From a virus, in IMG/VR virus record IMGVR_UViG_3300037067_026753: a DNA stretch of 61,485 nucleotides, one strand, 5' to 3'. Numbering within the stretch: the stretch's first letter is position 1; each line of letters starts with the position of its first letter. Shown here piece after piece: positions 42,322-58,790 of this stretch. Both the position numbers and the translations under genes were made by a program. A model generated the notes under the pieces. It worked only from the letters and a program-made list of their open reading frames with translations, had not been told where the DNA came from and ran no database searches.

Positions 42322-42921
42322 TTAATAAATAAAATCATAATCTTTTGTGCCAGAACGCTGGCTCCAAATTAAAGCATCATACACAGCCACACTAACACCC
42401 TGGTTTATTGCCCGAGCCCGTACTTCATCCTCTATCGAAAAATAATCAAATTTCTTGCCCGTGACACAAAGATGTTGCAAAATATGCGTATCCACAATAG
42501 CCAAATCCTCTATCCCTAAATTCCTTAGAAAATGACTAGCCGCTTTCAAACCTATGCCTTTAATTTCCCTTACAACAAAAGTCCTTATTGCTCGTGTGTC
42601 ACGCTCTGATTCAAGCATTGGGCTCAATTTTTTATAAAATTCATCGAATTTGTATTTTGCAGCTAAAAGATAATCAACTTTGCGGTTCTTAAATCTTATT
42701 ATAGAAATAATCTTGAGTAACTCTTCTCGGTATATTGGCCTTGCATAAAACCTCTCGTCCTTGAGCATATTTATAACACTCAAAACTGTTTTAAATTTTG
42801 TCTGGGGAACTAGAACACAAAAACAAAGATTATAAAAAACATCTAATTTTGTTTTAGGTTTTTTAAAGCGTTGTACTATTTCTTTTGCTTGCGCAATTTG
42901 GTCTTTTGTAAAATAAATCAT
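42322..42921 (-). CDS. HhH-GPD family N-glycosylase/DNA lyase (Ogg/EndoIII-like)
   Basis: IKGIGLKAASHFLRNLG helix-hairpin-helix and the catalytic Asp in IVDTH. Confidence 0.6.
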   Translation of the reverse strand: MIYFTKDQIAQAKEIVQRFKKPKTKLDVFYNLCFCVLVPQTKFKTVLSVINMLKDERFYARPIYREELLKIISIIRFKNRKVDYLLAAKYKFDEFYKKLSPMLESERDTRAIRTFVVREIKGIGLKAASHFLRNLGIEDLAIVDTHILQHLCVTGKKFDYFSIEDEVRARAINQGVSVAVYDALIWSQRSGTKDYDFIY

Positions 42922-42971
42922 AATACTCCCTTGCTATTTTTTATATAATAAAACTACATGGAGGGAGTAAC

Positions 42972-43175
42972 ATGATGGAAGAAAAAACAATTTTCAGCAT
43001 TACGTTGAATAATAAAAACGAAATTCGTTCAAATATGGATCTTTCGAGTATCTTGGGAGAAGAAGATGCTCTACGATTTATTCATTCCTTGCTTGATGAA
43101 TTTAAACAAGATGTGCTGAGGAAAATCAGAGAAATTAAAGCACCTGTAAAAGAAGATGATGAATTTGATTTTTAA
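42972..43175 (+). CDS. Hypothetical small acidic protein (67 aa)
   Basis: GGAGGGAG RBS upstream; one of the few plus-strand genes. Confidence 0.4.
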   Translation: MMEEKTIFSITLNNKNEIRSNMDLSSILGEEDALRFIHSLLDEFKQDVLRKIREIKAPVKEDDEFDF

Positions 43176-43633
43176 AGATAAAACCCGGACATTCTTTCGT
43201 TTTTAGCAATATCTTCTAAAACAAAAAAATCATTCACTTCAGAAAGTTTTTCACAATATAGTCTACAAAATTCAAAAATTTGACGCGTACTTGTTTTAAC
43301 ATAAACTTTTATCGACCTACAAAAATTTTGAATATCTTTATTTTTTTGAAATTCAAAAGCTAATCTTGTTAGCCTGTGGTTTCCATCTGAAAAAACAAAC
43401 TCATCATTTTTAAAATGGCCACACATCGGTAAATTCGTAATTCTTTCATAATCTACATCTCCAACAATCATATTATCATTATTAAAATCTTGCTCTCTAA
43501 AAGTTCTCAAATTCCAACTTGAATTGAAATTAATCGCATTAATAATTGGAATGTCACTTAAACAATAAAAACCAGGTTCGACTTGTCTTGCCTTGCATAA
43601 TACATAAACCTGATTACTTGAATAGATTAACAT
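43172..43633 (-). CDS. Hypothetical protein (153 aa)
   Basis: ORF from the supplied track. Confidence 0.45.
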   Translation of the reverse strand: MLIYSSNQVYVLCKARQVEPGFYCLSDIPIINAINFNSSWNLRTFREQDFNNDNMIVGDVDYERITNLPMCGHFKNDEFVFSDGNHRLTRLAFEFQKNKDIQNFCRSIKVYVKTSTRQIFEFCRLYCEKLSEVNDFFVLEDIAKNERMSGFYL

Positions 43634-43652
43634 ATTTAAAGCATCTTGATAG

Positions 43653-44495
43653 TCAATTTTTTGTCTTTTTTTTGCATCTTGTTATATAAAAATCTAACAT
43701 ATAAGTTTTTATCCATTTGTTGACTTTTTGAGTTTTTATTTTTAAAAGCTTTGAAACCTCACTTACCCAACCATTTTTTGAAAAATCTATAGAACTATTC
43801 TCAATTATCTTTATTTTCTCAAATTGCTTAAGTAATTGTAATAAAGATCTTATCTTAGATTTCTGCTGTAATTTAAGTTTTTTAGAATTATCTCTAGCTA
43901 TTCTTAAAGTTTTGTTTTTAAGCATATGATTTTCAAGAGATTTCTGAACATACTCATATTTATCCAAACTACTTAACAAATCTAAGAATGAATTGATTTT
44001 TTCTTGATTTATTTCGTTATAAGCAATTCTTACGACTTTCCAACCTTTCAATAACAAATGCTTATCTTTCTCTAAGTCATGTTCAAATCTAGTATTCCCA
44101 TGCGAAAAATGTGCTGGTCCATCAAGTTCAATAGCAAGTTTTATATTGACAAATGCAAAATCAATAAAATATGGAAATTCAGCATATTCACTTACAATGT
44201 CATATTTTTCGTTTAAGTTAAATTTCAAAATAACTTTGTCTATAAACCATTGCTCTAAAGAACTTGGGATCTGTTTACTTCTTTTTTCCCAAGCTGTTTT
44301 ACCTGTCCGCTTTTTAAGATATTCAAATCTTGCTTTTCTAATCTTATTTTTTGTTACAGTTGTGTGTTTAAAAATTTCTGGATGTTTCAAGTGCAACAAC
44401 TTAAAGGCTTCAGATAGAGATCTACATTTATCTCTTAGAGCTATTGTTACTAGATCTTTGGGATAACCTATTTTTATAATTTCACCAGAAGACAT
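43653..44495 (-). CDS. Vsr/DUF559-like (restriction-endonuclease fold) homing-endonuclease-like protein
   Basis: C-terminal IELDGPAHFSHGNTRFEHDLEKDKHLLLKGWKVVRI. It is a paralog of 54168..55100 and sits next to the tRNA array. Confidence 0.45.
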   Translation of the reverse strand: MSSGEIIKIGYPKDLVTIALRDKCRSLSEAFKLLHLKHPEIFKHTTVTKNKIRKARFEYLKKRTGKTAWEKRSKQIPSSLEQWFIDKVILKFNLNEKYDIVSEYAEFPYFIDFAFVNIKLAIELDGPAHFSHGNTRFEHDLEKDKHLLLKGWKVVRIAYNEINQEKINSFLDLLSSLDKYEYVQKSLENHMLKNKTLRIARDNSKKLKLQQKSKIRSLLQLLKQFEKIKIIENSSIDFSKNGWVSEVSKLLKIKTQKVNKWIKTYMLDFYITRCKKKTKN

Positions 44496-44848
44496 ACCAG
44501 AAGAATATAAATTTCTAACTTCGTCAACTTAAAAAATCTTTTACATTTGACGCACTGATATTTTTCAATACCAAAAGTATTTGATGTTATTTTTTTTCTA
44601 GTACCTATTAAATAAGATTTCTTTAAATTTTTACTTGCATTATGTTTTCTTTTTATATCTTTAATATAAAACACAATATTTTTCTTAGAATATCCTTTTT
44701 TTATGATTTCTGTCAACAGCAAACCAGACAAATACAAGCTTTTAATTTCTTGTATTTTATTTTTTGACAAAACGCAAAATTTTTTGTGTTGTTTAAAACC
44801 AGTTAAATTCTTTAGGATTTTACCACATTTATTGCATACAAAACTCAT
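44474..44848 (-). CDS. C2H2-like zinc-finger small protein
   Basis: CNKCGKILKNLTGFKQHKKFC. Confidence 0.4.
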   Translation of the reverse strand: MSFVCNKCGKILKNLTGFKQHKKFCVLSKNKIQEIKSLYLSGLLLTEIIKKGYSKKNIVFYIKDIKRKHNASKNLKKSYLIGTRKKITSNTFGIEKYQCVKCKRFFKLTKLEIYILLVCLLVKL

Positions 44849-44868
44849 ATTTTTACTCGTTAAAAAAC

Positions 44869-44940
44869 TGGGGTAGAAGGATTTGCACCTCCGACACCCG
44901 GCTCCAAGGGCCAGCGTTCTTCTACTGAACTATACCCCAA
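44869..44940 (-). tRNA. tRNA-Gln (anticodon TTG) with a non-canonical anticodon loop CCUUGGA
   Basis: Cloverleaf folds by hand, with a U1-A72 pair and G73 as expected for Gln. Anticodon stem CTGGC/GCCGG. Position 33 is C. Confidence 0.6.
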
Positions 44941-44953
44941 TAAATTTCAAACT

Positions 44954-45026
44954 AGCCACAAAGAGACTTGAACTCTTAACCTACAGTTTAGGAAACTGTG
45001 ACTCTATCCAATTGAGCTATGTGGCT
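44954..45026 (-). tRNA. tRNA-Arg (anticodon CCT)
   Basis: Acceptor AGCCACA/TGTGGCT, anticodon loop TTCCTAA, T-loop TTCAAGT. Confidence 0.8.
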
Positions 45027-45031
45027 AAAAA

Positions 45032-45108
45032 TGGTCGGAACGAGCAGAGTTGAACTGCTGACCCCCTGCACCCCATGCAGGTGCGCTACCAGGCTGCGCC
45101 ACGTTCCG
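45032..45108 (-). tRNA. tRNA-Pro (anticodon GGG), CCA encoded
   Basis: Acceptor CGGAACG/CGTTCCG, anticodon loop ATGGGGT (as I remember E. coli proL), T-loop TTCAACT, 3'-terminal CCA. Confidence 0.8.
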
Positions 45109-45126
45109 TTGTTCAAAGAACTTAAA

Positions 45127-45201
45127 TCGGAGTGAGTGGATTTGAACCACCGGCCTTGTGATCCCGGATCACACGTTCTAACCAGGCTGAACTACACTCC
45201 G
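45127..45201 (-). tRNA. tRNA-Pro (anticodon CGG) with C33
   Basis: Acceptor CGGAGTG/CACTCCG, anticodon stem TGTGA/TCACA, loop TCCGGGA (C at position 33). Confidence 0.65.
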
Positions 45202-45205
45202 TATT

Positions 45206-45280
45206 CTGGGGTGAGAAGACTTGAACTTCTAACTTCTGGTTTCAGAGACCAGCGTTCTAAACCAATTGAACTACACCCCA
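45206..45280 (-). tRNA. tRNA-Gln (anticodon CTG)
   Basis: Acceptor TGGGGTG/CACCCCA (U1-A72, G73), anticodon loop CTCTGAA. Confidence 0.8.
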
Positions 45281-45286
45281 ATAAAA

Positions 45287-45364
45287 TGGTCGGGATGAGA
45301 GGATTTGAACCTCCGACACCTGCGTCCCAGGCGCAGTGCTCTAACCAGACTGAGCTACATCCCG
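45287..45364 (-). tRNA. tRNA-Pro (anticodon TGG) with C33, CCA encoded
   Basis: Acceptor CGGGATG/CATCCCG, anticodon stem CTGCG/CGCAG, loop CCTGGGA. Confidence 0.65.
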
Positions 45365-45388
45365 TAATTCAAAGAACTCTAAACAAAA

Positions 45389-45415
45389 CGGCCCCTCTTT
45401 TTTGGAGAGGAGCCG
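45389..45415. terminator. Bidirectional rho-independent terminator
   Basis: cggcccctc/gaggagccg stem with a T-rich loop. It is flanked by aaaacaaaa on one side and tttgaaattt on the other, so there is a T-tract on both strands. Confidence 0.55.
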
Positions 45416-45561
45416 TTTGAAATTTCGTTTTTGTCTTTCAGTTATTTCAACAGCAGCCCTCTCCAGGTTATGTTCCTGGGTTGTTGTGGTTGCGGCTGTT
45501 GAAAAAATATTTTCATAGTTTAAATATAACATAAATTATTGCAAGTGTAAATATTTTTATG

Positions 45562-46041
45562 TCATAATACAAAAAATTCTGCATAATTGTTTTCATAAAG
45601 TCTCATATTGTCTAGAATATTTGGCTCTACTTCTAACATATTGTCTTTTCTAAGAGGATATAAAAAACAATTATCCTCTGGGCTCGGATCCATTACGAGA
45701 ATTTTGTTGTTGTTCTTTTTTATTCGTACTGCATGATTAAACCAAGGCAAAGGACTTCCATTACTTTTATGAAAAATGATGACAATAACGTCTTGATTGG
45801 GATACTTTGAGAATATTTCAAAAGTTTTGATACCTGAATCTTTGTAAATATAGAACCCGTTAAATGTTTCATTTAGAAAATCATAAGTATTAAGGAGATT
45901 AGTTGTGCCAGTTTGTTCAGCAAGCTGAATATTAATATGATATTGATATTCTAAATTTTTTATATAATAAGTGTTATATGAAATTCTTATATTTATTTTG
46001 TTTGTTTTGTTTGTGTTCAAGTTCAGCACCATGGTTGTCAT
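45562..46041 (-). CDS. Hypothetical protein (159 aa)
   Basis: ORF from the supplied track. Confidence 0.45.
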   Translation of the reverse strand: MTTMVLNLNTNKTNKINIRISYNTYYIKNLEYQYHINIQLAEQTGTTNLLNTYDFLNETFNGFYIYKDSGIKTFEIFSKYPNQDVIVIIFHKSNGSPLPWFNHAVRIKKNNNKILVMDPSPEDNCFLYPLRKDNMLEVEPNILDNMRLYENNYAEFFVL

Positions 46042-46182
46042 ATAGCGTCATATATGTAGGTTCTGAAAAAGAATGTGACATGCTTTTGAAGGAATTAGAA
46101 AAGAAAAATCAAGAATGTAGAGTGATTTGTCATGATAGTGGTGCTGTTTACGAAATCAATTATAGACCAATCAAATAGTTTT

Positions 46183-47052
46183 TTAGACTCCTTTAGCAAG
46201 ATAATCCCAAACTTTTTGTTCGTTTATAGCAACCAGAACATAATCACCATTTTCATCAAGTCTCGATCCCCATTCACCTTTTTCACTGTAAGGTTTTGCT
46301 CTGACCCATGTCCCAATTTCTGGATGCAAATGACATACCGCAGCAGTAGGATCATGAAATTTTTTCCCATCACTACCAAGTTTAAATCTCCACGTCATAC
46401 CTTCGCGGAATAATTCAGCAGCTCGATCTTTTGGGGGAACACTTGTTATGTATTTATGAGTATCAAGATTATACATCATATAATGACAAACATTTTTACC
46501 AACAAAATGTCTTTCTTTGATATCCATTTTTAAGAAGTTAAAAGCACCCTTTTTGTCACCATTTAAATTGAAAGTTGGGACTGTTTGTTTTCCTTTGAAT
46601 TTATCAAGCATTTTCACAGTAATACCATGTGTCATATAACCAATAAAACCACCTTGCATAGTTGCACAATTTAATTGTACGGGCAAATTATAATGGCCTA
46701 AATTTTGAAGAGGTCCACATCCGAAAAAATCAACATCATCATCAACAAGAACACGTCTGATAACTTCATTTGCAAGAATTGCGTTTGAAGAATAATATGG
46801 AAATTTATATTGATCAAGCATTGCTTTATGAATGTTTGTTGGATGTTCTTTTCTTCTTCCAAGTAAGGGGACACCTATGAGAACATCTTTCTTTCCCAGA
46901 ATTTGAAGTAAAAAATCCACAATAGCGATTTGCATCTCATCACCCGGGCTAATAAGAATACCTTTAATATTCACCCCAGCTGAAAATAAATAACATAAAG
47001 CAAAAAAATCATCTGGGTCATGACCTATATCTGTTTCGACTAATAGATTCAT
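46183..47052 (-). CDS. Nucleoside hydrolase (IU-NH family)
   Basis: N-terminal ETDIGHDPDDFFAL matches the DxDxxxDD Ca2+/ribose-binding motif. Confidence 0.6.
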   Translation of the reverse strand: MNLLVETDIGHDPDDFFALCYLFSAGVNIKGILISPGDEMQIAIVDFLLQILGKKDVLIGVPLLGRRKEHPTNIHKAMLDQYKFPYYSSNAILANEVIRRVLVDDDVDFFGCGPLQNLGHYNLPVQLNCATMQGGFIGYMTHGITVKMLDKFKGKQTVPTFNLNGDKKGAFNFLKMDIKERHFVGKNVCHYMMYNLDTHKYITSVPPKDRAAELFREGMTWRFKLGSDGKKFHDPTAAVCHLHPEIGTWVRAKPYSEKGEWGSRLDENGDYVLVAINEQKVWDYLAKGV

Positions 47053-47160
47053 ATTTACTCGACTTTATACGTAATTTTCAACACAATGTTTATGTTAATT
47101 ACTTGCAAAAGTTACAGATACTTCATTGTCGTTTTCAGTGAGACTAAACGCGAACATTTA

Positions 47161-47385
47161 TTACTTCCTGTTATATTGCCAGGGTTTTAAACACCATTTA
47201 CTCATTGTTTGTTTTGTTTCAAGCCATCTATAATCAGAAATGTCCCAAGATTCATAAAACTTTTTATAAGTTTTACCATTGGGTACATCTTCAGCTTTCC
47301 TTATCGTATGGTTAGCATATCTTTTTTCTTTACTTCGGCCTCTTGATCGATCTGTTACCCACGAAGTACAATATGATCGGGACAA
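47161..47385 (-). CDS. Hypothetical small basic protein (74 aa)
   Basis: ORF from the supplied track. Confidence 0.35.
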   Translation of the reverse strand: MSRSYCTSWVTDRSRGRSKEKRYANHTIRKAEDVPNGKTYKKFYESWDISDYRWLETKQTMSKWCLKPWQYNRK

Positions 47386-47398
47386 AATAAACTCCTTT

Positions 47399-48068
47399 TT
47401 AAAGTATTACATTTTTTCTCTCCTTTTTTGTTTTAGAAATTTTCTCCCTTACTTCTTTTCTCTTGGAAACATTGTTTTCACCACTTATTAAAATTTTTCT
47501 TTGTGGATTATTTTTCCAAAAATTTAAGACTGCTTTTGAAATATTTTGTTTTTGTTCTATTGTTCTTTTTCTTCCTCTTAAAATAAATTTAGGTTTGCCT
47601 TTTTGTTTTTTAGACGCATGCGACATTTTTTGTCTAGTAATTTCTGTCGGTTTTCTACCAGACATTGCAAGACTCACTTTTTTCTTGCGCTGTTCTGTCC
47701 AAGGAGATTTTATAAAACAATCTTTTTTCCCATTCGCAGTATCTTCTTTATACTTACTTCTAATTTCTTCTCTTCGCGGATTATTTGAAAAACAATCGCC
47801 CCCATCACCACCTTTTGTTATATCCAACAGGTGCTCTTGAATTAAGAAACTCTATCCAATATTTTTCTCTTTCATTTAGCTGATCTACTTGACATTCTTC
47901 TATAATATCTTTTCGAAAATTTTCTTGGCCATATTTTATTATTGCTTTTCGTATAAGTATACCTGATCCATAATATTGAATATTATACTTTAATTCTTTC
48001 CCGATATAAATTTTGCCATTCAAAAGATTTGTAATTTTATAAATTACGCTTAAACTTGCCATAATCAT
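47399..48068 (-). pseudogene. GIY-YIG homing endonuclease interrupted by a frameshift
   Basis: ORF 47805..48068 encodes the GIY-YIG domain (IYKITNLLNGKIYIGK...YYGSG...REKYWIE...N). ORF 47399..47827 encodes the lysine-rich NUMOD-like C-terminal half. The two ORFs overlap by 23 nt in different frames. Confidence 0.55.
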
Positions 48069-49084
48069 CTTTTTCTAAGTGTTCGTTCATAATCTTCAAA
48101 ACGTATTTTTGCGATTTTTGAACGCTGTTCTGTTCGAACTACAACTCCTTCAGGTTTTCCCAATGCATCATTTTCAAGCAAAGCGTTTGACATGCCCGGG
48201 AGCAGATTTTTCAACCAATCATAAGTCCCTTGAATGGTTTGTGGTGGACATGCTCCAATAATAGAAGGCACTATTAGACATCTTATATCTGCTGCTACAC
48301 TTGCAATTGTTCTGACTCCAACAAAATTTTGTCCCCCATTATCTCTCCAAGCAGCTATTTTTTCTATGGGCAAATCAAGTAAATCTTCAAACTCTTTTGC
48401 TTCCATCATTATGACATCAAACAACCTGAAACCAAGTTTCCCTGTTTTTGTATAATTTTTTGCCGTTCCTGCTTTACCCCCATAAACTTCCCCAAATAAT
48501 ACAAAAACAGATTGTTCAAGTTGGTCCCAGTAAATTCTTCTTGCATTGTCAGCCACAGTTTGAATTGTATCAACAATATCTAATGTAGGATTATGAATCC
48601 AATCTCCAAAACCATAAAGAAGTTCTTCACGAGAACCAATTAGATATGTCCCTTTAGGAAACAAAATAATACGAGCATTTGTACCATCAATTTTCTCAGA
48701 AAGAAAAATTTCGTCATCTGCTGAAAAAGATACAAGAACTTCTTCTTTCAAAGAACCTCTATCCCCAAGAGCATGATATGTAAGAATACTTGGGTATTTT
48801 GTAGCCGAATTGATTTTTTTCAAATCAAAAGCTCGCATATTCACACAATATTTACCATAATCAGGATTATGTTTCTTCATAATGTCGTATGTTGCCGGTC
48901 TTACTTTCCAGCCTACATTGTCGCAATTACCACAAGCTATACTCATGCTCATAGCAGCTACATCACCTGGCATAATTTCTTCGCTATTACAATTAGAACA
49001 AGTCATTACTACAAATGCTGACGGTGGACAAATCTTACCCTCATGCTTTATACCACAAAAAATACAATGCTTAGCTTCACTCAT
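48065..49084 (-). CDS. ATP-dependent RNA ligase (Rnl2-like nucleotidyltransferase) with an N-terminal zinc finger
   Basis: Motif I EKIDGTNARI (compare Rnl2 KIHGTN). N-terminal Cys clusters CIFCG...CP, CSNCNS and CGNCDN. Confidence 0.55.
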   Translation of the reverse strand: MSEAKHCIFCGIKHEGKICPPSAFVVMTCSNCNSEEIMPGDVAAMSMSIACGNCDNVGWKVRPATYDIMKKHNPDYGKYCVNMRAFDLKKINSATKYPSILTYHALGDRGSLKEEVLVSFSADDEIFLSEKIDGTNARIILFPKGTYLIGSREELLYGFGDWIHNPTLDIVDTIQTVADNARRIYWDQLEQSVFVLFGEVYGGKAGTAKNYTKTGKLGFRLFDVIMMEAKEFEDLLDLPIEKIAAWRDNGGQNFVGVRTIASVAADIRCLIVPSIIGACPPQTIQGTYDWLKNLLPGMSNALLENDALGKPEGVVVRTEQRSKIAKIRFEDYERTLRKR

Positions 49085-49871: not shown

Positions 49872-50696
49872 TCAATCCACGAATTTTACATTTGCCCTTG
49901 CACGTGCTTTGGATTCAGTATTGACAAGTACTTTATGCCATACGCTTCCAAGATTCACAGTAGCATGTTCTTCATGCGAAATTTTGCCCTTGGCATACAC
50001 ATTGGGATCAGCCATCATAGAACGGTAACGCTTTGCACTATCAGGTTGCTCTTTTAAGAGCTTTTGATAATCTTTCACTTCAATAACGTTACTCCCAAGA
50101 ACATAAACTTGTCTTCCACCTACTCTGTACAAAAATTCAGCATAGTGAAAGTGAGAACCTCCACCTCTCATCGGTTCGTTCTTCCAGACTTTTGTCAAGT
50201 TCCCTTTGGGCGGCTCAAAATTCGGTTGAGGAACAAACATGAATTCGCCTTGACGGTGAATTTTCTTTCCCGACTTCAAAAGACGGTGTCTCTTATGCGC
50301 ATTCTTTTTGTTGACACCCTCTTTCGATTCAATGTCAATAAGTTCTTTGGGTTTTAAAGCTTGTTTGGCACCAATTACCGTAGTAACTCTTGAAGATTCA
50401 GGGATAGCACAAGTGAACCAGTGACGTTCATCATGTCCACAAAGAAATTTCGACTTGATTTCGCTTGTCTTATCGCCTTTTCTGTTGATAACAGGTACTT
50501 TTGTCATCAAAAGCAAATGTCTGTCAGCTTTTTGAGCATCAAGAATCAACATTTCTATTTCTTTTGTGACTTGAAGCTCAAAATACTCGCCTTCACTGTC
50601 TCTTCTGACATCAATAGAAAAACCATCTCTACGTGGCTCAATGACTTTTACTCGAGCCCCGATTGCTTCGAATTTCTTTTCGATTGTTGTTGTCAT
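49872..50696 (-). CDS. Hypothetical protein (274 aa)
   Basis: ORF from the supplied track. Confidence 0.5.
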   Translation of the reverse strand: MTTTIEKKFEAIGARVKVIEPRRDGFSIDVRRDSEGEYFELQVTKEIEMLILDAQKADRHLLLMTKVPVINRKGDKTSEIKSKFLCGHDERHWFTCAIPESSRVTTVIGAKQALKPKELIDIESKEGVNKKNAHKRHRLLKSGKKIHRQGEFMFVPQPNFEPPKGNLTKVWKNEPMRGGGSHFHYAEFLYRVGGRQVYVLGSNVIEVKDYQKLLKEQPDSAKRYRSMMADPNVYAKGKISHEEHATVNLGSVWHKVLVNTESKARARANVKFVD

Positions 50697-51142
50697 ATAA
50701 CCTCTAAATAAAGCGTGCTTCCAATAAATTTTTCAAGAACTTTACCATGATCAAAAGCAAGATCAGGTAAATTATTTATATCAAAAAATTCAAGTTTCCT
50801 TGCATCATCTTTAGCTTTAGGCTCACCAGTGCATCTATGTACATAATAAACATGATCTATCACATGTCCTCTTGGATCTCTTTTGGGATCAGAATTGACC
50901 ATGAATAATTCAAGATGTCTGGGCTCCACAACTAAATTTGTTTCTTCATAAAACTCCCTTGCTCCTGCAACCTCCAAACTTTCTTGATCACAGTTCAAAA
51001 ATCCACCCGGTAATGCCCACATACCAACAAAGGGTTCATGATCTCTCTGAATCAACAAAATTTTATTTGTTTTGTTTGTAGTCATGTAAATCAAACTAGC
51101 AGTCGAAGCTGCATTTTTAAAATCATGAATATCAGTTGGCAT
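50693..51142 (-). CDS. Nudix hydrolase
   Basis: Nudix box GGFLNCDQESLEVAGAREFYEETNLVV (Gx5Ex7REUxEExGU). Confidence 0.8.
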   Translation of the reverse strand: MPTDIHDFKNAASTASLIYMTTNKTNKILLIQRDHEPFVGMWALPGGFLNCDQESLEVAGAREFYEETNLVVEPRHLELFMVNSDPKRDPRGHVIDHVYYVHRCTGEPKAKDDARKLEFFDINNLPDLAFDHGKVLEKFIGSTLYLEVI

Positions 51143-51705: not shown

Positions 51706-51990
51706 ATGCAAATCTCAAAAGCATCAGATGATCTTTATCGTATTGTTATTACCTTCGACGCAAAAGAAGACACAGATGTTGCACGACAAACATGTTTCTT
51801 CCAATTAAGAGATTTGAATAATATTTACAAAATCAAACCAAGAGGAAAACAAAGAGTCAAATCAATAACTATTGAGCCGTTCAATAAAAAGAAACTAGAG
51901 CCCAAAGGCCCTAGTCCCGATCGAGACACACGTTCCAATAGATGTAGTCAACCCAAGTCTCGTGCGGTATCTCAGCATCGAGCCTCCTGA
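51706..51990 (+). CDS. Possible small plus-strand protein
   Basis: AAGGAAA RBS before the ATG at 51706. The 3' end runs antisense into the HNH gene, so the true extent is uncertain. Confidence 0.3.
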   Translation: MQISKASDDLYRIVITFDAKEDTDVARQTCFFQLRDLNNIYKIKPRGKQRVKSITIEPFNKKKLEPKGPSPDRDTRSNRCSQPKSRAVSQHRAS

Positions 51991-52465
51991 CAACCTGAAT
52001 TGGTGCGGATTTGCTAAGACGAGGAATATAAGGTTTCCTTATCAAATCCCTTTTATAGTTCTTAACATGCTTGCAACCTTTTTGCCCATTGCATCTTATG
52101 CAGCTCACTACAATGTTGTCCCACCAAGTCTTACCGCCGTCTTGCCGTGGAATTACATGGTCAAACGTGAAATTTGAAAGAGTAACCTTCTTACCGCAAT
52201 ACATGCAACATCCAGCATCTCTGAGATAAACATTTTTCCTTGTAAAAGGAAGCACGTTTGTAAAATGCTTTGGTACATAGTCAGAGTCAATGCACTTGAT
52301 CACTGAAGGTATCGGCATTACAAAATTTACTCCACAGAATTTCTGCTCATAGTTTTCTAAAGCAATAGCTCTCTGTGTTGAGACTAATGCAATAGCCCTA
52401 CGAGTTGAGACAATTGAAACTGGGATCATACCGATATTGAGCATTAAAGTTTGCATAATGGACAC
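51911..52465 (-). CDS. HNH endonuclease
   Basis: CMYCGKKVTLSNFTFDHVIPRQDGGKTWWDNIVVSCIRCNGQKG. Confidence 0.7.
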   Translation of the reverse strand: MSIMQTLMLNIGMIPVSIVSTRRAIALVSTQRAIALENYEQKFCGVNFVMPIPSVIKCIDSDYVPKHFTNVLPFTRKNVYLRDAGCCMYCGKKVTLSNFTFDHVIPRQDGGKTWWDNIVVSCIRCNGQKGCKHVKNYKRDLIRKPYIPRLSKSAPIQVVRRLDAEIPHETWVDYIYWNVCLDRD

Positions 52466-52534: not shown

Positions 52535-53410
52535 TTAAATGCCCAAGGCCGGGGTCGAACCGACATGAGACTCAGTCTCGGCAGGTCTTAAGCCTGCAGT
52601 GTCTCCCAATTTCACCACTTGGGCTCGAAAATTATCTGAATCAAAAGTAAAATATTGCTTTAAATTATGGCCTTCTGTAATTAATTTTATATAGTTGTCA
52701 ATTGGAATATTTCTTCTTCTAAAAAACTTAATAATCTCAAGCAATGTTTCATAAAAAATTACTCTAATCACATAACCATTATTTTTAAAAGCTTCTACAA
52801 CTTTATCAACATGAGACCCTCGAAAACCTTTTATTTCATATAGCTTGCCTTCAATATCAAAATCATTTATTCTTGTCGATCCATTATACTGCACTCTTAT
52901 ATTCTCATAATCAAATTTAATGTGTTTATAAACTAGATAAAGAGCAAAAATAAACTCAAAAGTGCTTCTCAAAAGAACTTTTTTGTTATTAAAGATAAAA
53001 TAAGAATATTTTCCTCTACCAATTCCTTTTGCAGGTGTCAACAAACCTTGAGCATATAATTTTTTTCTAGTTTCTGATTGTTTTATATGTGCAGGATGAT
53101 TTTTAGTTTTTGATCTTTCTATGCTTGCTTTGACAAAAGGGTTATTAAAACCTATTTTTTTTAATCTTATTGAATTCGCTTCACTTATACGTCGTATCGC
53201 TTCTGATGTTTGCTTTGTTAACCCTTTTGCCCATGCTCTTTTTTTGTCCAATTGTTTTGTCGGAATTCTTCCTTCTTTATGTGCTTTCTTAATTGCTTCA
53301 GAATTTTTCTTCCTTATTTTTGGACAAGAGTTCCACGAGTTTGAACAACACCATTTCTTATTACTTAACTGAAACTTTGCTTCTTGTTCGCATCCATATT
53401 CGCACTGCAT
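52535..53410 (-). CDS. Putative homing-endonuclease-like protein (N-terminal zinc finger, basic repeats, C-terminal D..E.K motif)
   Basis: N-terminal CEYGCE...CCSNSWNSCP, a lysine-rich middle, and DFDIEGKLYEIKG (PD-(D/E)xK-like). The 3' end reads through the tRNA-Leu gene, so the true stop is uncertain. Confidence 0.4.
   Translation of the reverse strand: MQCEYGCEQEAKFQLSNKKWCCSNSWNSCPKIRKKNSEAIKKAHKEGRIPTKQLDKKRAWAKGLTKQTSEAIRRISEANSIRLKKIGFNNPFVKASIERSKTKNHPAHIKQSETRKKLYAQGLLTPAKGIGRGKYSYFIFNNKKVLLRSTFEFIFALYLVYKHIKFDYENIRVQYNGSTRINDFDIEGKLYEIKGFRGSHVDKVVEAFKNNGYVIRVIFYETLLEIIKFFRRRNIPIDNYIKLITEGHNLKQYFTFDSDNFRAQVVKLGDTAGLRPAETESHVGSTPALGI
52540..52624 (-). tRNA. tRNA-Leu (anticodon TAA), type II
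   Basis: Acceptor GCCCAAG/CTTGGGC, anticodon loop CTTAAGA, long variable arm, T-loop TTCGACC. Confidence 0.8.
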
Positions 53411-53490
53411 GCTTACTCCTTTTATTAGAAGTAAGCATATAAAAACTTTAATAATTAAGACTGTTGTGTATGCCTTACATAAGCTTAAAA

Positions 53491-54114
53491 TTACCCTTTG
53501 CGTTGGTGTGCTAATTTCCTAAAACTAAATTTGTCGTACCCGTGCGATTCAGCTTTCAACTTGTCTGAAATCGGCCATGGCTCTTTTTCTTTATTTGTCA
53601 AAACTCCACTTATAAACTGCTGTACCTTTTGAAACATAGTAAATGGGTCAATGATTTTTTCAAAATTAAAGTTTTTAAGACAAGAGTCTTTTTCGTTAAA
53701 CATTTGTCTATTGCATTTTTCTTGTTGCGTAATAATCGGCGTTCTATACTTTATATGCTCATTAAACAACTTTTCAGAAATTTCAATTTTAAAATCTGTC
53801 TCAATGTACTTGTTCCGTTTAATCAATTCTTCATAATATTTTGCGTTAGCAGTTCTAATAGCTTGTATAAATGATTCTACTTCATAGTAATACTTATCTT
53901 CATAATACAAACCTTTATAAACAGTCCCACAAACAGAAACTTTAAACTTTCTTACAAGTTCACGATCATAATAAAAAAATCGTTCAAATGCAGATTTATC
54001 ATTAAAAATGTCTTCTTTAATTTCTTCTGTTTTACGTTTATAAACAATGGACTTATCTATACCAAATGTCTTGATGGTATCATAATAATCATGAAATTTC
54101 GAAACAATCAACAT
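53491..54114 (-). CDS. Hypothetical protein
   Basis: The likely start is MLIVSK at 54114, with an AAGGAAAT RBS. The tracked ORF extends to 54159. Confidence 0.5.
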   Translation of the reverse strand: MLIVSKFHDYYDTIKTFGIDKSIVYKRKTEEIKEDIFNDKSAFERFFYYDRELVRKFKVSVCGTVYKGLYYEDKYYYEVESFIQAIRTANAKYYEELIKRNKYIETDFKIEISEKLFNEHIKYRTPIITQQEKCNRQMFNEKDSCLKNFNFEKIIDPFTMFQKVQQFISGVLTNKEKEPWPISDKLKAESHGYDKFSFRKLAHQRKG

Positions 54115-54132
54115 GATGATTTCCTTAACAAA

Positions 54133-54204
54133 TAGCGGGGGAGAGAATCGAACTCCCACTCTTTGGGTTATGAGCCCAATATCTTGCCATTAGAAGACCC
54201 CGCA
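54133..54204 (-). tRNA. Initiator-type tRNA-fMet (anticodon CAT)
   Basis: Positions 2-7 are GCGGGG, pairing with CCCCGC. Positions 1 and 72 are unpaired (U and U). The anticodon arm is TTGGG-CTCATAA-CCCAA with three G-C pairs next to the loop. It is near-identical to E. coli tRNA-fMet as I recall it. Confidence 0.7.
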
Positions 54205-55100
54205 AATTTCAAAGTATCTGACAATTTCAATAAGCACTTATCAATGTCTTTTTTTACTTCTGAAGCAGTAAAACGTAACACTTCCCAACCATTTGATTTA
54301 GACCAGTTATCTCGCTTCTGATCTTTTTGTTTTACTACATCAAGTTCATGACTCTTTCCATCAATCTCTACATCAACTTTTATATCAACAAAAGCAATGT
54401 CATATTCATAAATTCCAATTTGATATCTTGCTGTCCATCCAGATATATTATTTTTAATTAAAGCTTGTTTAAATAATTCTTCGACATAAGAAAGTTTTGA
54501 ACTGTGATATAAACGATAAGGTAATCTATCAGGGTGTTCGCTAAAAAACTTAATTGCATGTTTTGAAATTTTTTGTTTTGCTTGTTCTGACAAATGTACT
54601 TTCTTTTTACAATTTTTCAAAGCGATTCTAATAAGTTCGACACCAAATAACTTTCTAAGCTCTTCTTTTGATTCTCCAAGTTCCCATCTGTTTTTGATAT
54701 TCTGTATAATATTTGGATAATTTTTGATTAAATATGCTGCACATTTTTTCTTGTGCTTTGAAAAATTCCCTTTATTGAAATCTCTACCACAAACACACTG
54801 TACTTGCTCTCTAAATCCATAAAAACCTATTTTTGTCGATTTCTTTCTTTTGCAACTTGCATGAGAACATTTTTGACTTTCACTTATTGTTCTTTTTGGA
54901 GTGTTCCTTAGAGCATAAACTATAATTTTTTTAGAAATTAGTCCTTCTTGTCGAATTTCATTTATAGACATACCAGAATTGTATTTTTTAACAATCTCAT
55001 CATAACTATCAATTGACAAATTACATCTTGAATTATGTTGAGTACAACCTGATTTTGTATTGAAACTCCTATTACATTTTTTGCAAAAATACATATTCAA
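54168..55100 (-). CDS. Vsr/DUF559-like homing-endonuclease-like protein with N-terminal zinc fingers
   Basis: N-terminal CKKCNRSF...CTQHNSRC. C-terminal DVEIDGKSHELDVVKQKDQKRDNWSKSNGWEVLRF. Paralog of 43653..44495. The 3' end overlaps tRNA-fMet. Confidence 0.5.
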   Translation of the reverse strand: MNMYFCKKCNRSFNTKSGCTQHNSRCNLSIDSYDEIVKKYNSGMSINEIRQEGLISKKIIVYALRNTPKRTISESQKCSHASCKRKKSTKIGFYGFREQVQCVCGRDFNKGNFSKHKKKCAAYLIKNYPNIIQNIKNRWELGESKEELRKLFGVELIRIALKNCKKKVHLSEQAKQKISKHAIKFFSEHPDRLPYRLYHSSKLSYVEELFKQALIKNNISGWTARYQIGIYEYDIAFVDIKVDVEIDGKSHELDVVKQKDQKRDNWSKSNGWEVLRFTASEVKKDIDKCLLKLSDTLKFAGSSNGKILGS

Positions 55101-55102
55101 AA

Positions 55103-55432
55103 TTACTCAAAACGGTCACTGACATTCTTCCAGTCCTTACCATCCGTTCTTACTTTTCTTCTGCCCCACTTTTCAGCTTCCTTTGCTTGCAATCTAACAA
55201 GCAGCTTAGCTTCAGGCATTACTTGTATCATTCTTCGAGCCTCAGAAAATGAAACGCACAAATTTGCTTCAACCAATCTCTTAGGCTCTATTTTTTCCAT
55301 TTGACACCAACCATAAGATTTTCTTTCAAAAGCTATTCCACATTTTTCACACACTCTTATTTTATCGTCCTCGGCAATTTGATCACATGCCCACCCGCAC
55401 CGACATGTACAAGCATCACCTAACCAACTCAT
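55103..55432 (-). CDS. Cys-rich small protein (109 aa)
   Basis: CTCRCGWACD...CEKCG...C. Confidence 0.4.
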   Translation of the reverse strand: MSWLGDACTCRCGWACDQIAEDDKIRVCEKCGIAFERKSYGWCQMEKIEPKRLVEANLCVSFSEARRMIQVMPEAKLLVRLQAKEAEKWGRRKVRTDGKDWKNVSDRFE

Positions 55433-55671
55433 TTTTTACATTTCTGACATAAGTTATCAATATGATTTGTCATTTGCACGCATTTTTCACAAAACTCAAG
55501 TTCCATTTCTTTAATCTCGAGCACCCAACGCCATGCATATCTACATGTGCAATCAATACAATATAACCCGTTAGGGTCATTTGGCCACACAGGGCACAAC
55601 TTTGCGTCATCTTTTTCCTGAGCAACATCGCATTGCGCTATTGCTTGTTCTATTTGCTCTTTTGTTTTCAT
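55429..55671 (-). CDS. Cys-rich small protein (80 aa)
   Basis: CPVWPN...CIDCTCRYAW...CEKCVQMTNHIDNLCQKCKK. Confidence 0.4.
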   Translation of the reverse strand: MKTKEQIEQAIAQCDVAQEKDDAKLCPVWPNDPNGLYCIDCTCRYAWRWVLEIKEMELEFCEKCVQMTNHIDNLCQKCKK

Positions 55672-56366
55672 TTTTTCACGCCAAAAACACTATAATTGCC
55701 AAATGTTGGACGTTTAAAATATACGGTCATATCGGGTTCTAAACCCGTTTTCCTTACATATATTTCAAATTTACTGTCAAGCAAACTATGCAGCTCTTTT
55801 TCAGTATAATGCTTGACATGATATTTTACTATTTTATGATCAGGGTATCTTTCACCATTTGGAGTAGTAAAGCACCAGATACCATTGGGCTTCAAAACTC
55901 TATAAACTTCGCTAATTACTTTTTCAACCTCTTCAACATGTTCAAATGTTTCTACCGAAACAACAGTATCAAAAAGACTGTCAATTTCAGGGATTTGCTT
56001 GATATCCCCTACATCATATTTTATATTTAAAGCATTGTAATGTTCTTTTGCAAAATCAATACTTTCTTTATCGATGTCGTAACCATGTACTCTTAATGCT
56101 CTACTGGCAAGCATTTTTGTGCCCATGCCACAACCACAAGCAATATCGAGCACTAATTTGTTTTCAACTGCAACTAGAAATTCACGATACATTAAATCAT
56201 GGATGTCTATATTGCCCTGGCCAGCTTTACCTGCGTGTTCTGGGATTATTCGTTCGCCGGTATATTGCATTGTTCCCTCGGATCTATAACAATTCCACGT
56301 AGCGCATTTGCACAAATCGTACAAACTCCTGGAACAAGTGCAGAAGCTATACCTTGTTGATTGCAT
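55668..56366 (-). CDS. Class I SAM-dependent methyltransferase
   Basis: VLDIACGCGMGT (motif I), HGYDID, VVSVETFEHV, LKPNG. Confidence 0.65.
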   Translation of the reverse strand: MQSTRYSFCTCSRSLYDLCKCATWNCYRSEGTMQYTGERIIPEHAGKAGQGNIDIHDLMYREFLVAVENKLVLDIACGCGMGTKMLASRALRVHGYDIDKESIDFAKEHYNALNIKYDVGDIKQIPEIDSLFDTVVSVETFEHVEEVEKVISEVYRVLKPNGIWCFTTPNGERYPDHKIVKYHVKHYTEKELHSLLDSKFEIYVRKTGLEPDMTVYFKRPTFGNYSVFGVKK

Positions 56367-56570
56367 TGAGAACAGAGAATTTCCATATTACCATTCCTTA
56401 AATTTGGGATCGGAACGTATTTCTTCTACAAATTCTTTAAGATGTTCACAAGGCGGTTCTTCTTTTCCAATTCTCCAAGCAGCACCACAACTGGAACATA
56501 TAATTACGTTTGGAACAAGATCCCATTTTCTTATTGTTTTTTCAGCATTCAAAATAAAAGGCTCCAAAAA

Positions 56571-56654
56571 CGGAGGTACCAGGAATTGAACCTGGGGAGC
56601 TTTTCAGCTTTGCTTGTTTTCGAAACAAGGCCCTCGACCAACCGGACTACCTCC
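56571..56654 (-). tRNA. tRNA-Ser (anticodon CGA), type II, with an atypical acceptor/D-arm junction
   Basis: Acceptor GGAGGTA/TACCTCC, G73, anticodon stem CTTGT/ACAAG with loop TTCGAAA, long variable arm, T-loop TTCAATT. No U8 is identifiable by hand. Confidence 0.6.
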
Positions 56655-56676
56655 ATATATAGTTTCATTAACCTTA

Positions 56677-57003
56677 TTATTCGTCTATGCTAGACTGTGT
56701 CGTAGTTAACATTAGTTTGCATATATCCTGTATTAAAAGTTCTTCTTTTTCTCTAGCCTTTTCATAATGCTCATGTTTAAAACTATAAATCACTTGTGCC
56801 ATTGCTATATGGAGCACTTCGTGTACAAGATAATCTTCTGGTTCTTTTTCGTCAGAATACCACGTATAAACTGTTGCTTTCTTTGTTTTTACGTTCTTGC
56901 AACAGTGACCCTTATATTGACTATCAGAATCATACTCGATTTTCCAATCAGATAAAATTCTGATCTTCTTTACTATATTTGCTAATCTGTCTTCAGCTTT
57001 CAT
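56677..57003 (-). CDS. Hypothetical protein (108 aa)
   Basis: ORF from the supplied track. Confidence 0.4.
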   Translation of the reverse strand: MKAEDRLANIVKKIRILSDWKIEYDSDSQYKGHCCKNVKTKKATVYTWYSDEKEPEDYLVHEVLHIAMAQVIYSFKHEHYEKAREKEELLIQDICKLMLTTTQSSIDE

Positions 57004-57425
57004 TTCGTCAAGACCACTCTAACAACTTTATCAATTACGCCATTGGACACAAGTTTAAATTGCGGCATCCCCATTTCTTCTGCAAAAGGGTTACTATAAA
57101 AATTCATAAAGGAATTCTCATTAAAGAAATGGCAATGCTCTATGCACTCAACAGCTGATTCACTATGCCAATAAGGCACTTCTATTAAAAACACGCCTTT
57201 ATTTTCAAGTAAGTCATAGATATCTTTGATAATCTGTTTCAAAACTTTTGATGATTCGATATGTTCGAATACATGGCTCGCTTCAATATAACTAAATTTT
57301 CCTTCCAATTTAGGGAGCCCGTCATTCAAGTCCCACACTACATCAGCCCATTTGGGAACTATATCGACTCTAATTTTATCAGGTTCTGGTTTGCTATATG
57401 GTCCTTCACCCAACATTAAGCGCAT
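57000..57425 (-). CDS. Methyltransferase-domain-like protein, possibly truncated
   Basis: ASHVFEHIE and LLENKGVFLIEVPY resemble methyltransferase motifs II and III. No clear motif I. Confidence 0.4.
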   Translation of the reverse strand: MRLMLGEGPYSKPEPDKIRVDIVPKWADVVWDLNDGLPKLEGKFSYIEASHVFEHIESSKVLKQIIKDIYDLLENKGVFLIEVPYWHSESAVECIEHCHFFNENSFMNFYSNPFAEEMGMPQFKLVSNGVIDKVVRVVLTK

Positions 57426-57445
57426 ATTTTTACTCCAAATTTAAG

Positions 57446-57519
57446 AGACCCAGGGCGGATTTGAACCGACCGTAATGCTAGTTTTGCAGACTAGTGCCTT
57501 ACCGCTTGGCTACTGGGTC
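57446..57519 (-). tRNA. tRNA-Cys (anticodon GCA)
   Basis: Acceptor GACCCAG/CTGGGTC, discriminator U73 as expected for Cys, anticodon loop CTGCAAA, T-loop TTCAAAT. Confidence 0.75.
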
Positions 57520-57675
57520 ATGATATATTGTGTAATTCTTCAGCACATTCATAATAAACAGCTCGTTCGACATCAGTAATACAGCTAGACTGTGCTTTCT
57601 CAGTCCACTTCCTCACCAAATCATGGCAAGCATTTTTCAAAATTTGCAATTTATCTTTATCTGTCGACAAGTCTA

Positions 57676-58032
57676 TCATATTCGTTCATATACAAATTTG
57701 AATTTGTTTTGCTTATCTAATTTTTCTTCAGCTAATAAATAATCTTCTGGAAGAGACGCATTATTTATTGTCCCGTGTTTGCCAATAAACAAAATTTCTT
57801 TTAAAGTCGAATTAAGGTAAACATGAGCACCAAATAATGTTCCTATCAACTCACCATATCCAAGCTTAGAAAAAGTATCACTATCTGTATACGGATCAAA
57901 ACAATCAAGTAGATGATAGAGCAATTCTTGATGAATCTCTGCATTTATGCAAATAGATTCTACACGCTCATCTCCTATCTCGATTCGTGCAATGCCATCA
58001 ACAATTAATTTTCGTAATTTTTCTTTTTTCAT
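57676..58032 (-). CDS. Hypothetical protein (118 aa)
   Basis: ORF from the supplied track. Confidence 0.45.
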   Translation of the reverse strand: MKKEKLRKLIVDGIARIEIGDERVESICINAEIHQELLYHLLDCFDPYTDSDTFSKLGYGELIGTLFGAHVYLNSTLKEILFIGKHGTINNASLPEDYLLAEEKLDKQNKFKFVYERI

Positions 58033-58040
58033 AATTCAAA

Positions 58041-58113
58041 AGCCGATGAAGGGATTCGAACCCCCGACCTGCACATTACGAATGTATTGCTCTACCAACT
58101 GAGCTACATCGGC
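58041..58113 (-). tRNA. tRNA-Thr (anticodon CGT)
   Basis: Acceptor GCCGATG/CATCGGC, D-arm GCTC/GAGC, anticodon loop TTCGTAA (the stem has an A-C mismatch at 27-43), T-loop TTCGAAT. Confidence 0.6.
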
Positions 58114-58119
58114 AAAAAA

Positions 58120-58204
58120 TGGCGGAGGAAGAGGGACTCGAACCCCCAAGCCCTTTCGGGCGGCAGTTTTCAAGACTGCTCGTCTACCATTGACGTATTC
58201 CTCC
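58120..58204 (-). tRNA. tRNA-Ser (anticodon TGA), type II, CCA encoded
   Basis: Acceptor GGAGGAA/TTCCTCC, G73, anticodon stem GCAGT/ACTGC with loop CTTGAAA, variable arm CGCCCGAAAGGGCTT. Confidence 0.8.
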
Positions 58205-58209
58205 AAAAT

Positions 58210-58377
58210 TTACTTCTTTGCATACCTTTCGCTTTTTTCAGCATAAGGTAAACTATTTAATTCTACATCTAAATCAAACAAATGCCAGTTTTTACAACAA
58301 AAACATTCCTTTGATTTTGCCTTTGTGCAATCTAAACAGGTAAAAAGGCCGTTCCGTCTCTTATCTAATTCAGTCAT
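58210..58377 (-). CDS. Possible Cys-rich mini-protein (55 aa, not in the ORF track)
   Basis: My translation reads MTELDKRRNGLFTCLDCTKAKSKECFCCKNWHLFDLDVELNSLPYAEKSERYAKK. It lies between two tRNA genes. Confidence 0.3.
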   Translation of the reverse strand: MTELDKRRNGLFTCLDCTKAKSKECFCCKNWHLFDLDVELNSLPYAEKSERYAKK

Positions 58378-58425
58378 AAGAACCTCCCGTTTACCAGTAG
58401 ATTCTTATATACTTTTTAGAAAAAT

Positions 58426-58498
58426 TGTTAGCGAAAGGACTTGAACCTTCAACCGACAGATTATGATTCTGTTGCTCTACCAATTAAGCTACGCTAAC
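58426..58498 (-). tRNA. tRNA with CAT anticodon (elongator Met or Ile2/lysidine type)
   Basis: Acceptor GTTAGCG/CGCTAAC, A73, anticodon stem ACAGA/TCTGT with loop ATCATAA, T-loop TTCAAGT. Confidence 0.7.
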
Positions 58499-58784
58499 AT
58501 GACACTAAAAAACGCATTTTTGCGTGTTTATCCTCACTCTCAAGTTTTTTATTCTCGACAATCATAAACATATCTAACAAGGGTTCATATTGAACTTTCA
58601 ATTGTATTCTATCATTACAATCTATATAAACAGGTTTCTTAAAACTTTCTTGATAATGTCGTAAATTCACGGGGTCTCCTCCCCAATCTAATTTAAGTCT
58701 ATAGGGAGAATAATTAAACTGATGAGGATCGCCTTGGAGAACCTTTTTTACTTCATCAGATGACATATAACATCGAAAACTCAT
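58494..58784 (-). CDS. Hypothetical protein
   Basis: The tracked ORF starts at 58817, inside the tRNA-like locus. Internal Met 58784 is the likelier start. Confidence 0.4.
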   Translation of the reverse strand: MSFRCYMSSDEVKKVLQGDPHQFNYSPYRLKLDWGGDPVNLRHYQESFKKPVYIDCNDRIQLKVQYEPLLDMFMIVENKKLESEDKHAKMRFLVSC

Positions 58785-58790
58785 AAATTT

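Follow-up and report, generated by a model that had tools for sequence, protein, structure and literature searches.

Does a cytidine at position 33 of the anticodon loop, where uridine is almost invariant in elongator tRNAs and exceptions are rare (PMC5041475), mark a phage tRNA gene that has drifted or decayed, or a loop variant that has been selected? The question is raised by a cluster of six tRNA genes on the minus strand of IMG/VR virus record IMGVR_UViG_3300037067_026753, analysed over its whole length of 61,485 nucleotides (nt; the window), in which three of the six genes encode C33. As an element the cluster is of an ordinary kind, a phage accessory tRNA array. Its source would be a large uncultivated phage of about 110–195 kb, in which the cluster is presumably co-transcribed and accessory, and it belongs to a region where at least 17 tRNA genes lie dispersed, with homing endonucleases among them.

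Cytidine 33 in three of six clustered tRNA genes

The 17 tRNA genes that ARAGORN identified in the window all lie on the minus strand, six of them clustered at 44867–45364, and the Rfam covariance model RF00005 recovered the same six at 55–70 bits (gathering score 29) with the anticodon arms in the same register. Both agree with the genes and anticodons assigned in a preliminary description made from the sequence alone, which had also called the cluster tightly packed; spacing between genes is indeed 3–18 nt, but the order listed there is reversed, as the genes sit on the minus strand and are transcribed as Pro(UGG), Gln(CUG), Pro(CGG), Pro(GGG), Arg(CCU), Gln(UUG). All six anticodon loops have seven bases (Table 1). 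Pro(UGG), Pro(CGG) and Gln(UUG) have C33 (complementary G on the plus strand at 45330, 45167 and 44908, respectively) where elongator tRNAs of the RF00005 type have U33, and these are the three loops that had been singled out from hand folds, together with the U33-bearing AUGGGGU loop of Pro(GGG). U33 is found in all 11 other tRNAs of the window (52540–61341). The E. coli loops quoted for comparison were also correct (K-12 proK, UUCGGGA; proM, UUUGGGA), and that of E. coli glnU/W is UUUUGAU.

Automated refolding left the three hand-folded loops in place, restoring U33 in no alternative tRNA register. The sole candidate comes from the plain minimum-energy fold of Pro(UGG), whose helix, shifted in register and closing a loop of 5 nt, does not correspond to a tRNA anticodon arm and has no U33. 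The sequence at 42629–48125 is 100% identical in three independent public assemblies (one ENA contig spans the entire cluster, and two Logan contigs span portions of it), so the C33 cytidines are not assembly errors.

Pro(UGG) and Pro(CGG) are intact tRNAs with C encoded at position 33. Invariant U8, G18-G19, G53, T54, U55, C56, A58 and C61 are present in both, with no deviations at other invariant positions. The anticodon arm of Pro(UGG) is CUGCG-CCUGGGA-CGCAG, with C32 (45331) next to C33 (45330). Identity elements are G35, G36, G72 and A73 for bacterial prolyl-tRNA synthetase (ProRS), and U35, G36, U1-A72, G2-C71, G3-C70 and G73 for glutaminyl-tRNA synthetase; read directly from the sequence, these are present in the Pro and Gln tRNAs of the cluster, including C1-G72 and A73 in Pro(UGG). 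Pro(CGG), in which U32 is kept, has a minimum-energy fold consisting of a seven-base-pair stem with a triloop; without 1-methylguanosine at position 37, pairing of U32-A38 and C33-G37 could close its loop to three bases.

Gln(UUG), the third C33 gene, is a chimera: its acceptor arm, D arm and 5′ anticodon stem correspond to those of Gln(CUG), its variable loop and T arm to those of Pro(UGG), and the loop is that of Pro(UGG) with G35U. It acquired this loop by recombination with Pro(UGG), which explains both its C33 and its un-Gln-like G37 (G37-A38, where E. coli tRNA-Gln has A37-U38). The window therefore holds about two independent C33 events rather than three.

Origin and non-random distribution of C33

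No close cultured relative was found when the cluster was compared by megablast with 50,697 deposited phage records; the sole match, a Gordonia phage tRNA-Pro, is 83% identical but has U33. Relatives are known from uncultivated phages: a 194.6-kb IMG/VR contig (L002), syntenic with the window and with proteins about 56–81% identical, a 111.6-kb metagenome contig (L151) with 86% nucleotide identity around the RNA ligase gene, and three more distant ones (L152, L153 and L154). The orthologous site in L002 and L151 carries two tRNAs only, Pro(UGG) and Gln(UUG). Compared with these, the window has ~365 nt of gained sequence, with Pro(CGG), Pro(GGG), Arg(CCU) and an additional Gln, and the ancestral Gln, orthologous to Gln(UUG) of both relatives, now has the anticodon CUG. 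Pro(UGG) of L002 retains C33 and has the same T arm as that of the window, with all five stem pairs different, while that of L151 has U33 and a different tRNA body; U33 is also found in L153 and L154. To judge from these comparisons, the C33 locus turns over fast.

Pro(UGG) of the window is of a tRNA-Pro type that is very common in phages and has the stem CUGCG/CGCAG. Its closest homologues, 83–87% identical, have UU at positions 32-33, in loops UUUGGGA or UUUGGGG (L152 and many IMG/VR contigs); among the matches listed (>120 U33 homologues) the closest are 86–87% identical with the loop UUUGGGA, and both L152 and the cultured Bacillus phage P59 combine the stem of the window gene with the loop UUUGGGG. 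Relative to homologues in related and cultured phages, the window loop is changed at positions 32, 33 and 38. Because the closest homologues with the same stem read UU, C32-C33 is a derived double change, UU to CC, for which two substitutions were needed. A mobile C33 anticodon-arm module was considered and rejected: the identical arm does sit in very different tRNA bodies, yet its stem is the common Pro(UGG) stem. The U33 form of this stem is at least 24 times commoner than the C33 form (at least 120 contigs versus 5).

Baseline frequencies were obtained from two samples picked regardless of position 33 of the tRNAs counted, namely 120 IMG/VR contigs sharing a common D-arm word (589 usable tRNAs) and 120 contigs with the U33 form of the Pro stem (1,168 other tRNAs). 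C33 was found in 14/589 (2.4%) and 16/1168 (1.4%), respectively (pooled, 30/1757; 1.7%), and in 1/63 tRNAs of three cultured tRNA-rich phages. The rate is independent of array size (1.6% in large arrays versus 2.3% in contigs with few tRNAs). Against the 1.7% baseline, C33 in the window exceeds chance, whether counted as three of 17 tRNAs (P = 0.003) or as two events (2/16, P = 0.03).

The exact C33 Pro arm was found inside a tRNA in five IMG/VR contigs and, among bacteria, the exact arm plus T loop in just two species genomes out of 185,579, each a Clostridia metagenome-assembled genome (MAG; an Acutalibacteraceae and a Ruminococcus). One locus lies on a phage-like 112-kb contig that has dispersed tRNAs among small open reading frames (ORFs), the other on a 5.5-kb fragment. 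In the case set made up of these five contigs, the two MAG loci and the window, with the index Pro gene excluded from all counts, 28 of 105 co-resident tRNAs (27%) have C33 (11/77 without the L021 array described below, and 9/61 without the window too), versus 16/1168 (1.4%) where the index Pro has U33. This clustering by genome gave Fisher p values from 1e-6 to 1e-21 across subsets. C33 is also accompanied by C32, in 57 of 65 C33 tRNAs versus 1159/1914 (61%) of those with U33 (p = 3e-6), and in Ile(GAU) alone in 7/7 versus 22/44. The combination U32-C33 makes up 5/65, where ~38% would be expected among single-transition products. Other invariant positions deviate in 20% of C33 and 13.4% of U33 tRNAs, a difference that is not significant (p = 0.14). 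No preference of C33 for Pro, Gln or G37 was seen across phages, where it occurs with 28 different anticodons.

In one IMG/VR contig (L021, also indexed as L278; IMGVR_UViG_3300035564_000075, 1–17085), 18 of 29 tRNAs have C33, as confirmed by Rfam alignments, and 8 of the 29 have C55 (T loop TCCRANY), versus 1/1877 in control phage tRNAs. Positions 33 and 55 are alike in that each is a U-turn uridine and the second base of a 7-nt loop. Inside or beside this array lie genes for a sulfotransferase, a class I methyltransferase and a VWA protein; a methyltransferase common to it and the window was considered and discarded, the similarity being of the generic class I kind (E about 1e-3). Another contig (L023) has 29 tRNAs, six of them with C33, and a DUF2828/DUF7788/VWA protein in mid-array (6348–7850). 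The cultured Bacillus phage P59 (MT151604.1, Herelleviridae; L155, 8680–8754) carries a C33 tRNA-Ile(GAU) with the loop CCGAUAA, which recurs in at least seven unrelated IMG/VR contigs, and offers an experimentally tractable C33 phage tRNA.

Full-text literature searches returned nothing specific on C33 in phage tRNAs. The apparently selected variant of the window is part of a wider pattern in uncultivated phages, of which we found no description; rare overall yet concentrated in certain phage genomes, C33 points towards selection more than towards error or decay. The preliminary description had called C33 systematic. That term suits the non-random distribution across phages (genome clustering and co-occurrence with C32), but not the window itself, with its approximately two events.

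Explanations for C33

The reading we favour, at somewhat less than even confidence, is that of a functional accessory tRNA set with a selected C32-C33 loop variant, the best candidate for the pressure being a uridine-specific host anticodon-loop nuclease. C32-C33 would leave the tRNA usable by the ribosome while taking uridines out of the 5′ side of the loop. During infection such a nuclease would deplete the host's own tRNAs, and a phage copy with CC would be a poor substrate for it. Changing U32 and U33 to C would remove scissile or recognised uridines with pyrimidines kept, which fits the CC coupling, and the RNA ligase and polynucleotide kinase-like genes of the window (see below) suggest that this lineage meets tRNA damage. 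Candidate enzymes would be of the HEPN type, such as PrrC/RloC, Cas13 or type IX retron effectors.

PrrC cleaves 5′ of the wobble base. Cas13a cleaves anticodon loops at uridines (PMC11042736), the HEPN effector of a type IX retron cuts 5′-U↓N-3′ in anticodon loops, with tRNA-Leu G1-U33 as the top tRNA fragment (bioRxiv 10.64898/2026.07.14.738597), and the cleavage site of CdiA-CT(EC536) lies between positions 32 and 33 (PMC11724271). Changes in the anticodon loops of phage tRNAs have been predicted to stop host anticodon nucleases (PMC10264068), and escape from such nucleases via anticodon-arm differences has been proposed for phage tRNAs and shown in a few cases (PMC10264068, PMC11464382, PMC11555353). 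Decoding by yeast tRNA-Leu(GAG), which has a natural C33, is almost normal (PMC13492127).

Several observations weigh against selection by a nuclease. The overall C33 rate of 1.7–2.4% is not above the deviation at U8 (3.5%), T54 (4.2%) and A58 (3.2%) in the 589 tRNAs, so that C33 alone is not extraordinary for a phage tRNA. Contigs with a C33 Pro deviate more at other invariant positions (21% versus 13%, p = 0.02), which fits relaxed constraint. Arrays recombine internally, as for Gln(UUG)/Pro(UGG). The clustering may be part paralogy and could result partly from gene conversion in arrays and shared ancestry of the case contigs. Within the window, Pro(CGG) retains U32 and the other 14 tRNAs retain U33. 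Finally, U33C gave model substrates no protection from colicin E5 (PMC1635277) or gamma-toxin (PMC2275089), the two anticodon nucleases on which it has been tried; C33 as a shield from either of these was ruled out.

Tolerated drift, in which C33 is the least harmful change at its position, arising by simple transition under relaxed constraint and spread by duplication and recombination with no dedicated function, is a serious rival, though judged somewhat less likely than the favoured reading. Besides the baseline, so similar to the deviation at U8, T54 and A58, and the slight excess of other deviations in the case contigs, the window has further deviants (G55, G56 and G8), the Gln(UUG) chimera shows how recombination copies C33, the character is labile in close relatives (C in the window and L002, U in L151), and C33 is nearly neutral in yeast (PMC13492127). 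Drift does not, however, readily yield a 10- to 20-fold genome clustering that persists after removal of the index gene, the strong coupling to C32 with U32-C33 far below its expected share (5/65 versus ~38%), or the two substitutions, UU to CC, required in Pro(UGG), and 18 C33 tRNAs out of 29 in the single L021 array are not explained by it.

A broader proposition, that some phages systematically recode tRNA U-turn uridines to cytidine (C32-C33 in up to 18 of 29 tRNAs of one array) and that the window cluster is a mild instance of this, as a countermeasure to a pan-tRNA uridine-specific host loop nuclease or as a footprint of C-to-U editing, we regard as doubtful.

Altered decoding is improbable. 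C33 would shift U-turn geometry and so tune wobble range, frame maintenance or how well the tRNAs compete with those of the host for CCN and CAR codons. Within the decoding site, U33 makes contact with nucleotides 35 and 36 (PMC5041475), G33 of Candida tRNA-Ser alters decoding (cited in PMC13492127), and all three C33 tRNAs of the window have G36-G37-A38, where C33 can pair with unmethylated G37. Across phages, however, C33 is spread over 28 anticodons with no bias to G37, Pro or Gln, and the yeast comparison of C33 with U33 revealed minor effects only (PMC13492127). The cluster provides the full set of three proline and two glutamine isoacceptors, plus Arg(CCU), and was earlier thought to compensate for codon usage. 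Phage codon usage is CCU 39, CCA 35, CCC 13 and CCG 12% for Pro and CAA 77 and CAG 23% for Gln, with AGG at 13% of Arg, and half of the six tRNAs read codons that the phage itself seldom uses; judged on the phage's own usage, codon compensation is not suggested.

Decay, by which the C33 copies would be pseudogenes or unused in translation, is comparably improbable. Gln(UUG) departs from the invariant pattern three times (C33, G55 and a D loop without GG), has the lowest model score of the six and folds no better than shuffled sequences (z-score −0.9); on these sequence features it may be impaired, and pseudogene status is plausible for this gene only. Pro(UGG) and Pro(CGG), in contrast, score 61–64 bits with other invariants and the ProRS identity set intact. 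The cloverleaf is preserved across nine C33 tRNA-Pro genes of different phages, where 18 of 21 pairs have compensatory changes, which shows that it is under purifying selection, and the window sequence is identical in several samples.

C-to-U editing, in which a deaminase would restore U33 in the mature tRNA, is slightly less probable again. CDAT8 edits C8 to U8 in Methanopyrus kandleri tRNAs, and to our knowledge there is no case of C-to-U tRNA editing in bacteria or phages. The presence of C at both U-turn uridines in L021 (33 in 18/29, 55 in 8/29) does look systematic, and the preference for a CC context could mirror enzyme specificity. Yet the sole deaminase among ~60 ORFs scanned in the window (2850–3323) is a dCMP deaminase (ComEB, 1e-33; PDB 2hvv, 3e-27; T4 Cd, 7e-21; TadA merely 6e-6), none was found in the 10 kb adjoining the L021 array, and editing has no evident benefit.

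Capture of C33 from host tRNA-Pro and tRNA-Gln genes, raised in the preliminary description as a host-specific feature, is very unlikely despite the identical C33 anticodon arm in tRNA-Pro of two Clostridia MAGs, as only these 2 of 185,579 genomes have it (on the phage-like contig and the 5.5-kb fragment), homologues in four related phages, the orthologous gene among them, and in cultured phages have U33, and U33 is almost invariant in elongator tRNAs (PMC5041475).

Surroundings of the cluster

The strong hairpin before the cluster is probably the intrinsic terminator of the upstream ORF 45562–46041. It had been described as a bidirectional terminator, but it has a terminator score on the minus strand only and no credible plus-strand gene converges on it. 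The promoter scan found 9 sites versus 6.0 expected, and lends weak support to the match at 45523–45551.

Table 1 Features of the tRNA cluster and its immediate flanks, in window coordinates.
Feature	Coordinates	Strand	Details
tRNA-Pro(UGG)	45287..45364	-	First cluster gene; loop CCUGGGA; encoded CCA end; ARAGORN; Rfam 63.7 bits
tRNA-Gln(CUG)	45205..45281	-	Loop CUCUGAA, U33; ARAGORN; Rfam 69.6 bits
tRNA-Pro(CGG)	45127..45201	-	Loop UCCGGGA, C33 at 45167; ARAGORN; Rfam 61.0 bits
tRNA-Pro(GGG)	45032..45108	-	Loop AUGGGGU, U33; encoded CCA end; ARAGORN; Rfam 56 bits
tRNA-Arg(CCU)	44952..45027	-	Loop UUCCUAA, U33; ARAGORN; Rfam 65.2 bits
tRNA-Gln(UUG)	44867..44940	-	Last cluster gene; loop CCUUGGA, C33 at 44908; ARAGORN; Rfam 55.3 bits, lowest of six
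Hairpin and U-tract	45386..45418	-	-20.9 kcal/mol, z = -5.9; 22 nt upstream of first tRNA
Sigma-70-like promoter match	45523..45551	-	TTTACA-17-TATATT with TG; upstream of hairpin; consensus match only, weak
Two ORFs directly downstream of cluster	43653..44848	-	44474–44848, zinc-finger-like; 43653–44495, DUF559 endonuclease fold

By domain matches, the two ORFs downstream of the cluster appear to be a homing-endonuclease-like unit, which is syntenic in L002 and L151 and has a paralogue at 54168–55100, likewise among tRNA genes. Homing-endonuclease-like genes amid tRNAs are found at 43653–44848, 51911–52465, 54168–55100, 47805–48068 and 19386–20165 (DUF559, HNH, a faint GIY-YIG match and NUMOD3). 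The tRNA content of the orthologous site, six in the window versus two each in L002 and L151, is consistent with endonuclease-driven turnover. The phage is AT-rich (34.5% G+C), while Pro(GGG) has 65% G+C and, by eye, resembles enterobacterial proL; it may have been captured recently from a bacterium. Elsewhere in the window, tRNA-Leu(UAG) (59788–59872) has G56 in its T loop (TTGAAGT) and a D loop without GG, and tRNA-Ser(CGA) (56570–56655) has G8.

Annotated functions in the window include DNA polymerase, NAD synthetase, dCMP deaminase, a Thy1-domain protein, a NUDIX hydrolase and several methyltransferases. An RNA ligase-family protein (PF09414, phrog_548) is encoded at 48065–49084, and a 320-aa ORF (12406–13368) matches phage polynucleotide kinase/phosphatase families (phrog_415, HAD part); the two could form a T4-like tRNA repair pair, although sequence searches gave no solved-structure homologues of either. 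Two class I S-adenosylmethionine methyltransferase ORFs lie between tRNA genes (55668–56366 and 57000–57425), the first matching a PHROG annotated ‘tRNA methyltransferase’ (phrog_4752, 3e-14). Of two neighbouring ORFs at 21972–24579, one (624 aa) weakly matches protein kinases and the other (254 aa) has a PP2C phosphatase domain; they would be a phage kinase/phosphatase pair. The NAD synthetase (28293–29975), the NUDIX hydrolase, similar to the NadM/ADP-ribose pyrophosphatase type (50693–51142), and an AAA_28 kinase-like ORF (1961–2509) suggest phage NAD salvage genes.

Known systems and significance of C33

The window cluster resembles phage tRNAs proposed to escape host nucleases (PMC10264068; T5 versus PARIS and retron Eco7, PMC11464382, PMC11555353) in its array organisation, loop differences outside the anticodon, intact tRNA bodies and supply of whole isoacceptor families, with codon usage no obvious explanation. 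However, the published changes are tRNA-specific and lie at known cleavage or recognition sites, whereas here the near-universal U33 and position 32 are affected, in many tRNA species across phages. In the T4 system of damage and repair (PrrC versus Pnkp and RNA ligase; PMC2610378, PMC10264068), predicted RNA ligase and kinase/phosphatase-like genes beside many tRNAs are again a shared feature, but T4 repairs the damage and the model preferred here for C33 is avoidance. Yeast tRNA-Leu(GAG) (PMC13492127) and eukaryotic initiator tRNA-Met (PMC5041475) likewise have genomic C33 in an otherwise normal, translation-compatible tRNA; those are single fixed eukaryotic cellular genes, unlike the labile, genome-clustered and C32-coupled trait of these bacterial-type phage tRNAs. 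The CDAT8 system is similar in having C encoded in place of a universally conserved uridine across many tRNAs of a single genome, a feature clearest here in L021, but no candidate editing enzyme was found in the scanned ORFs and the window has three such tRNAs only.

The invariance of U33 is assumed by tRNA finders, structural models and engineering rules. If C33 is merely tolerated drift, it still gives a measure of how far constraint on phage tRNAs is relaxed. Systematic recoding of U-turn uridines, from either cause, would add a new layer to the tRNA arms race at a supposedly invariant position. If U33 and U32 have been lost repeatedly under selection, as we tentatively favour, C33 tRNAs would function in bacterial translation, and phage tRNA arrays would be built to resist a host activity, probably of a class so far unrecognised, by which the U-turn uridine is read or cut. 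CC at positions 32-33 would then be a signature by which to find such phages and, by inference, such defences, and would provide a rule for designing tRNAs that resist nucleases, for use in phage therapy and synthetic biology.

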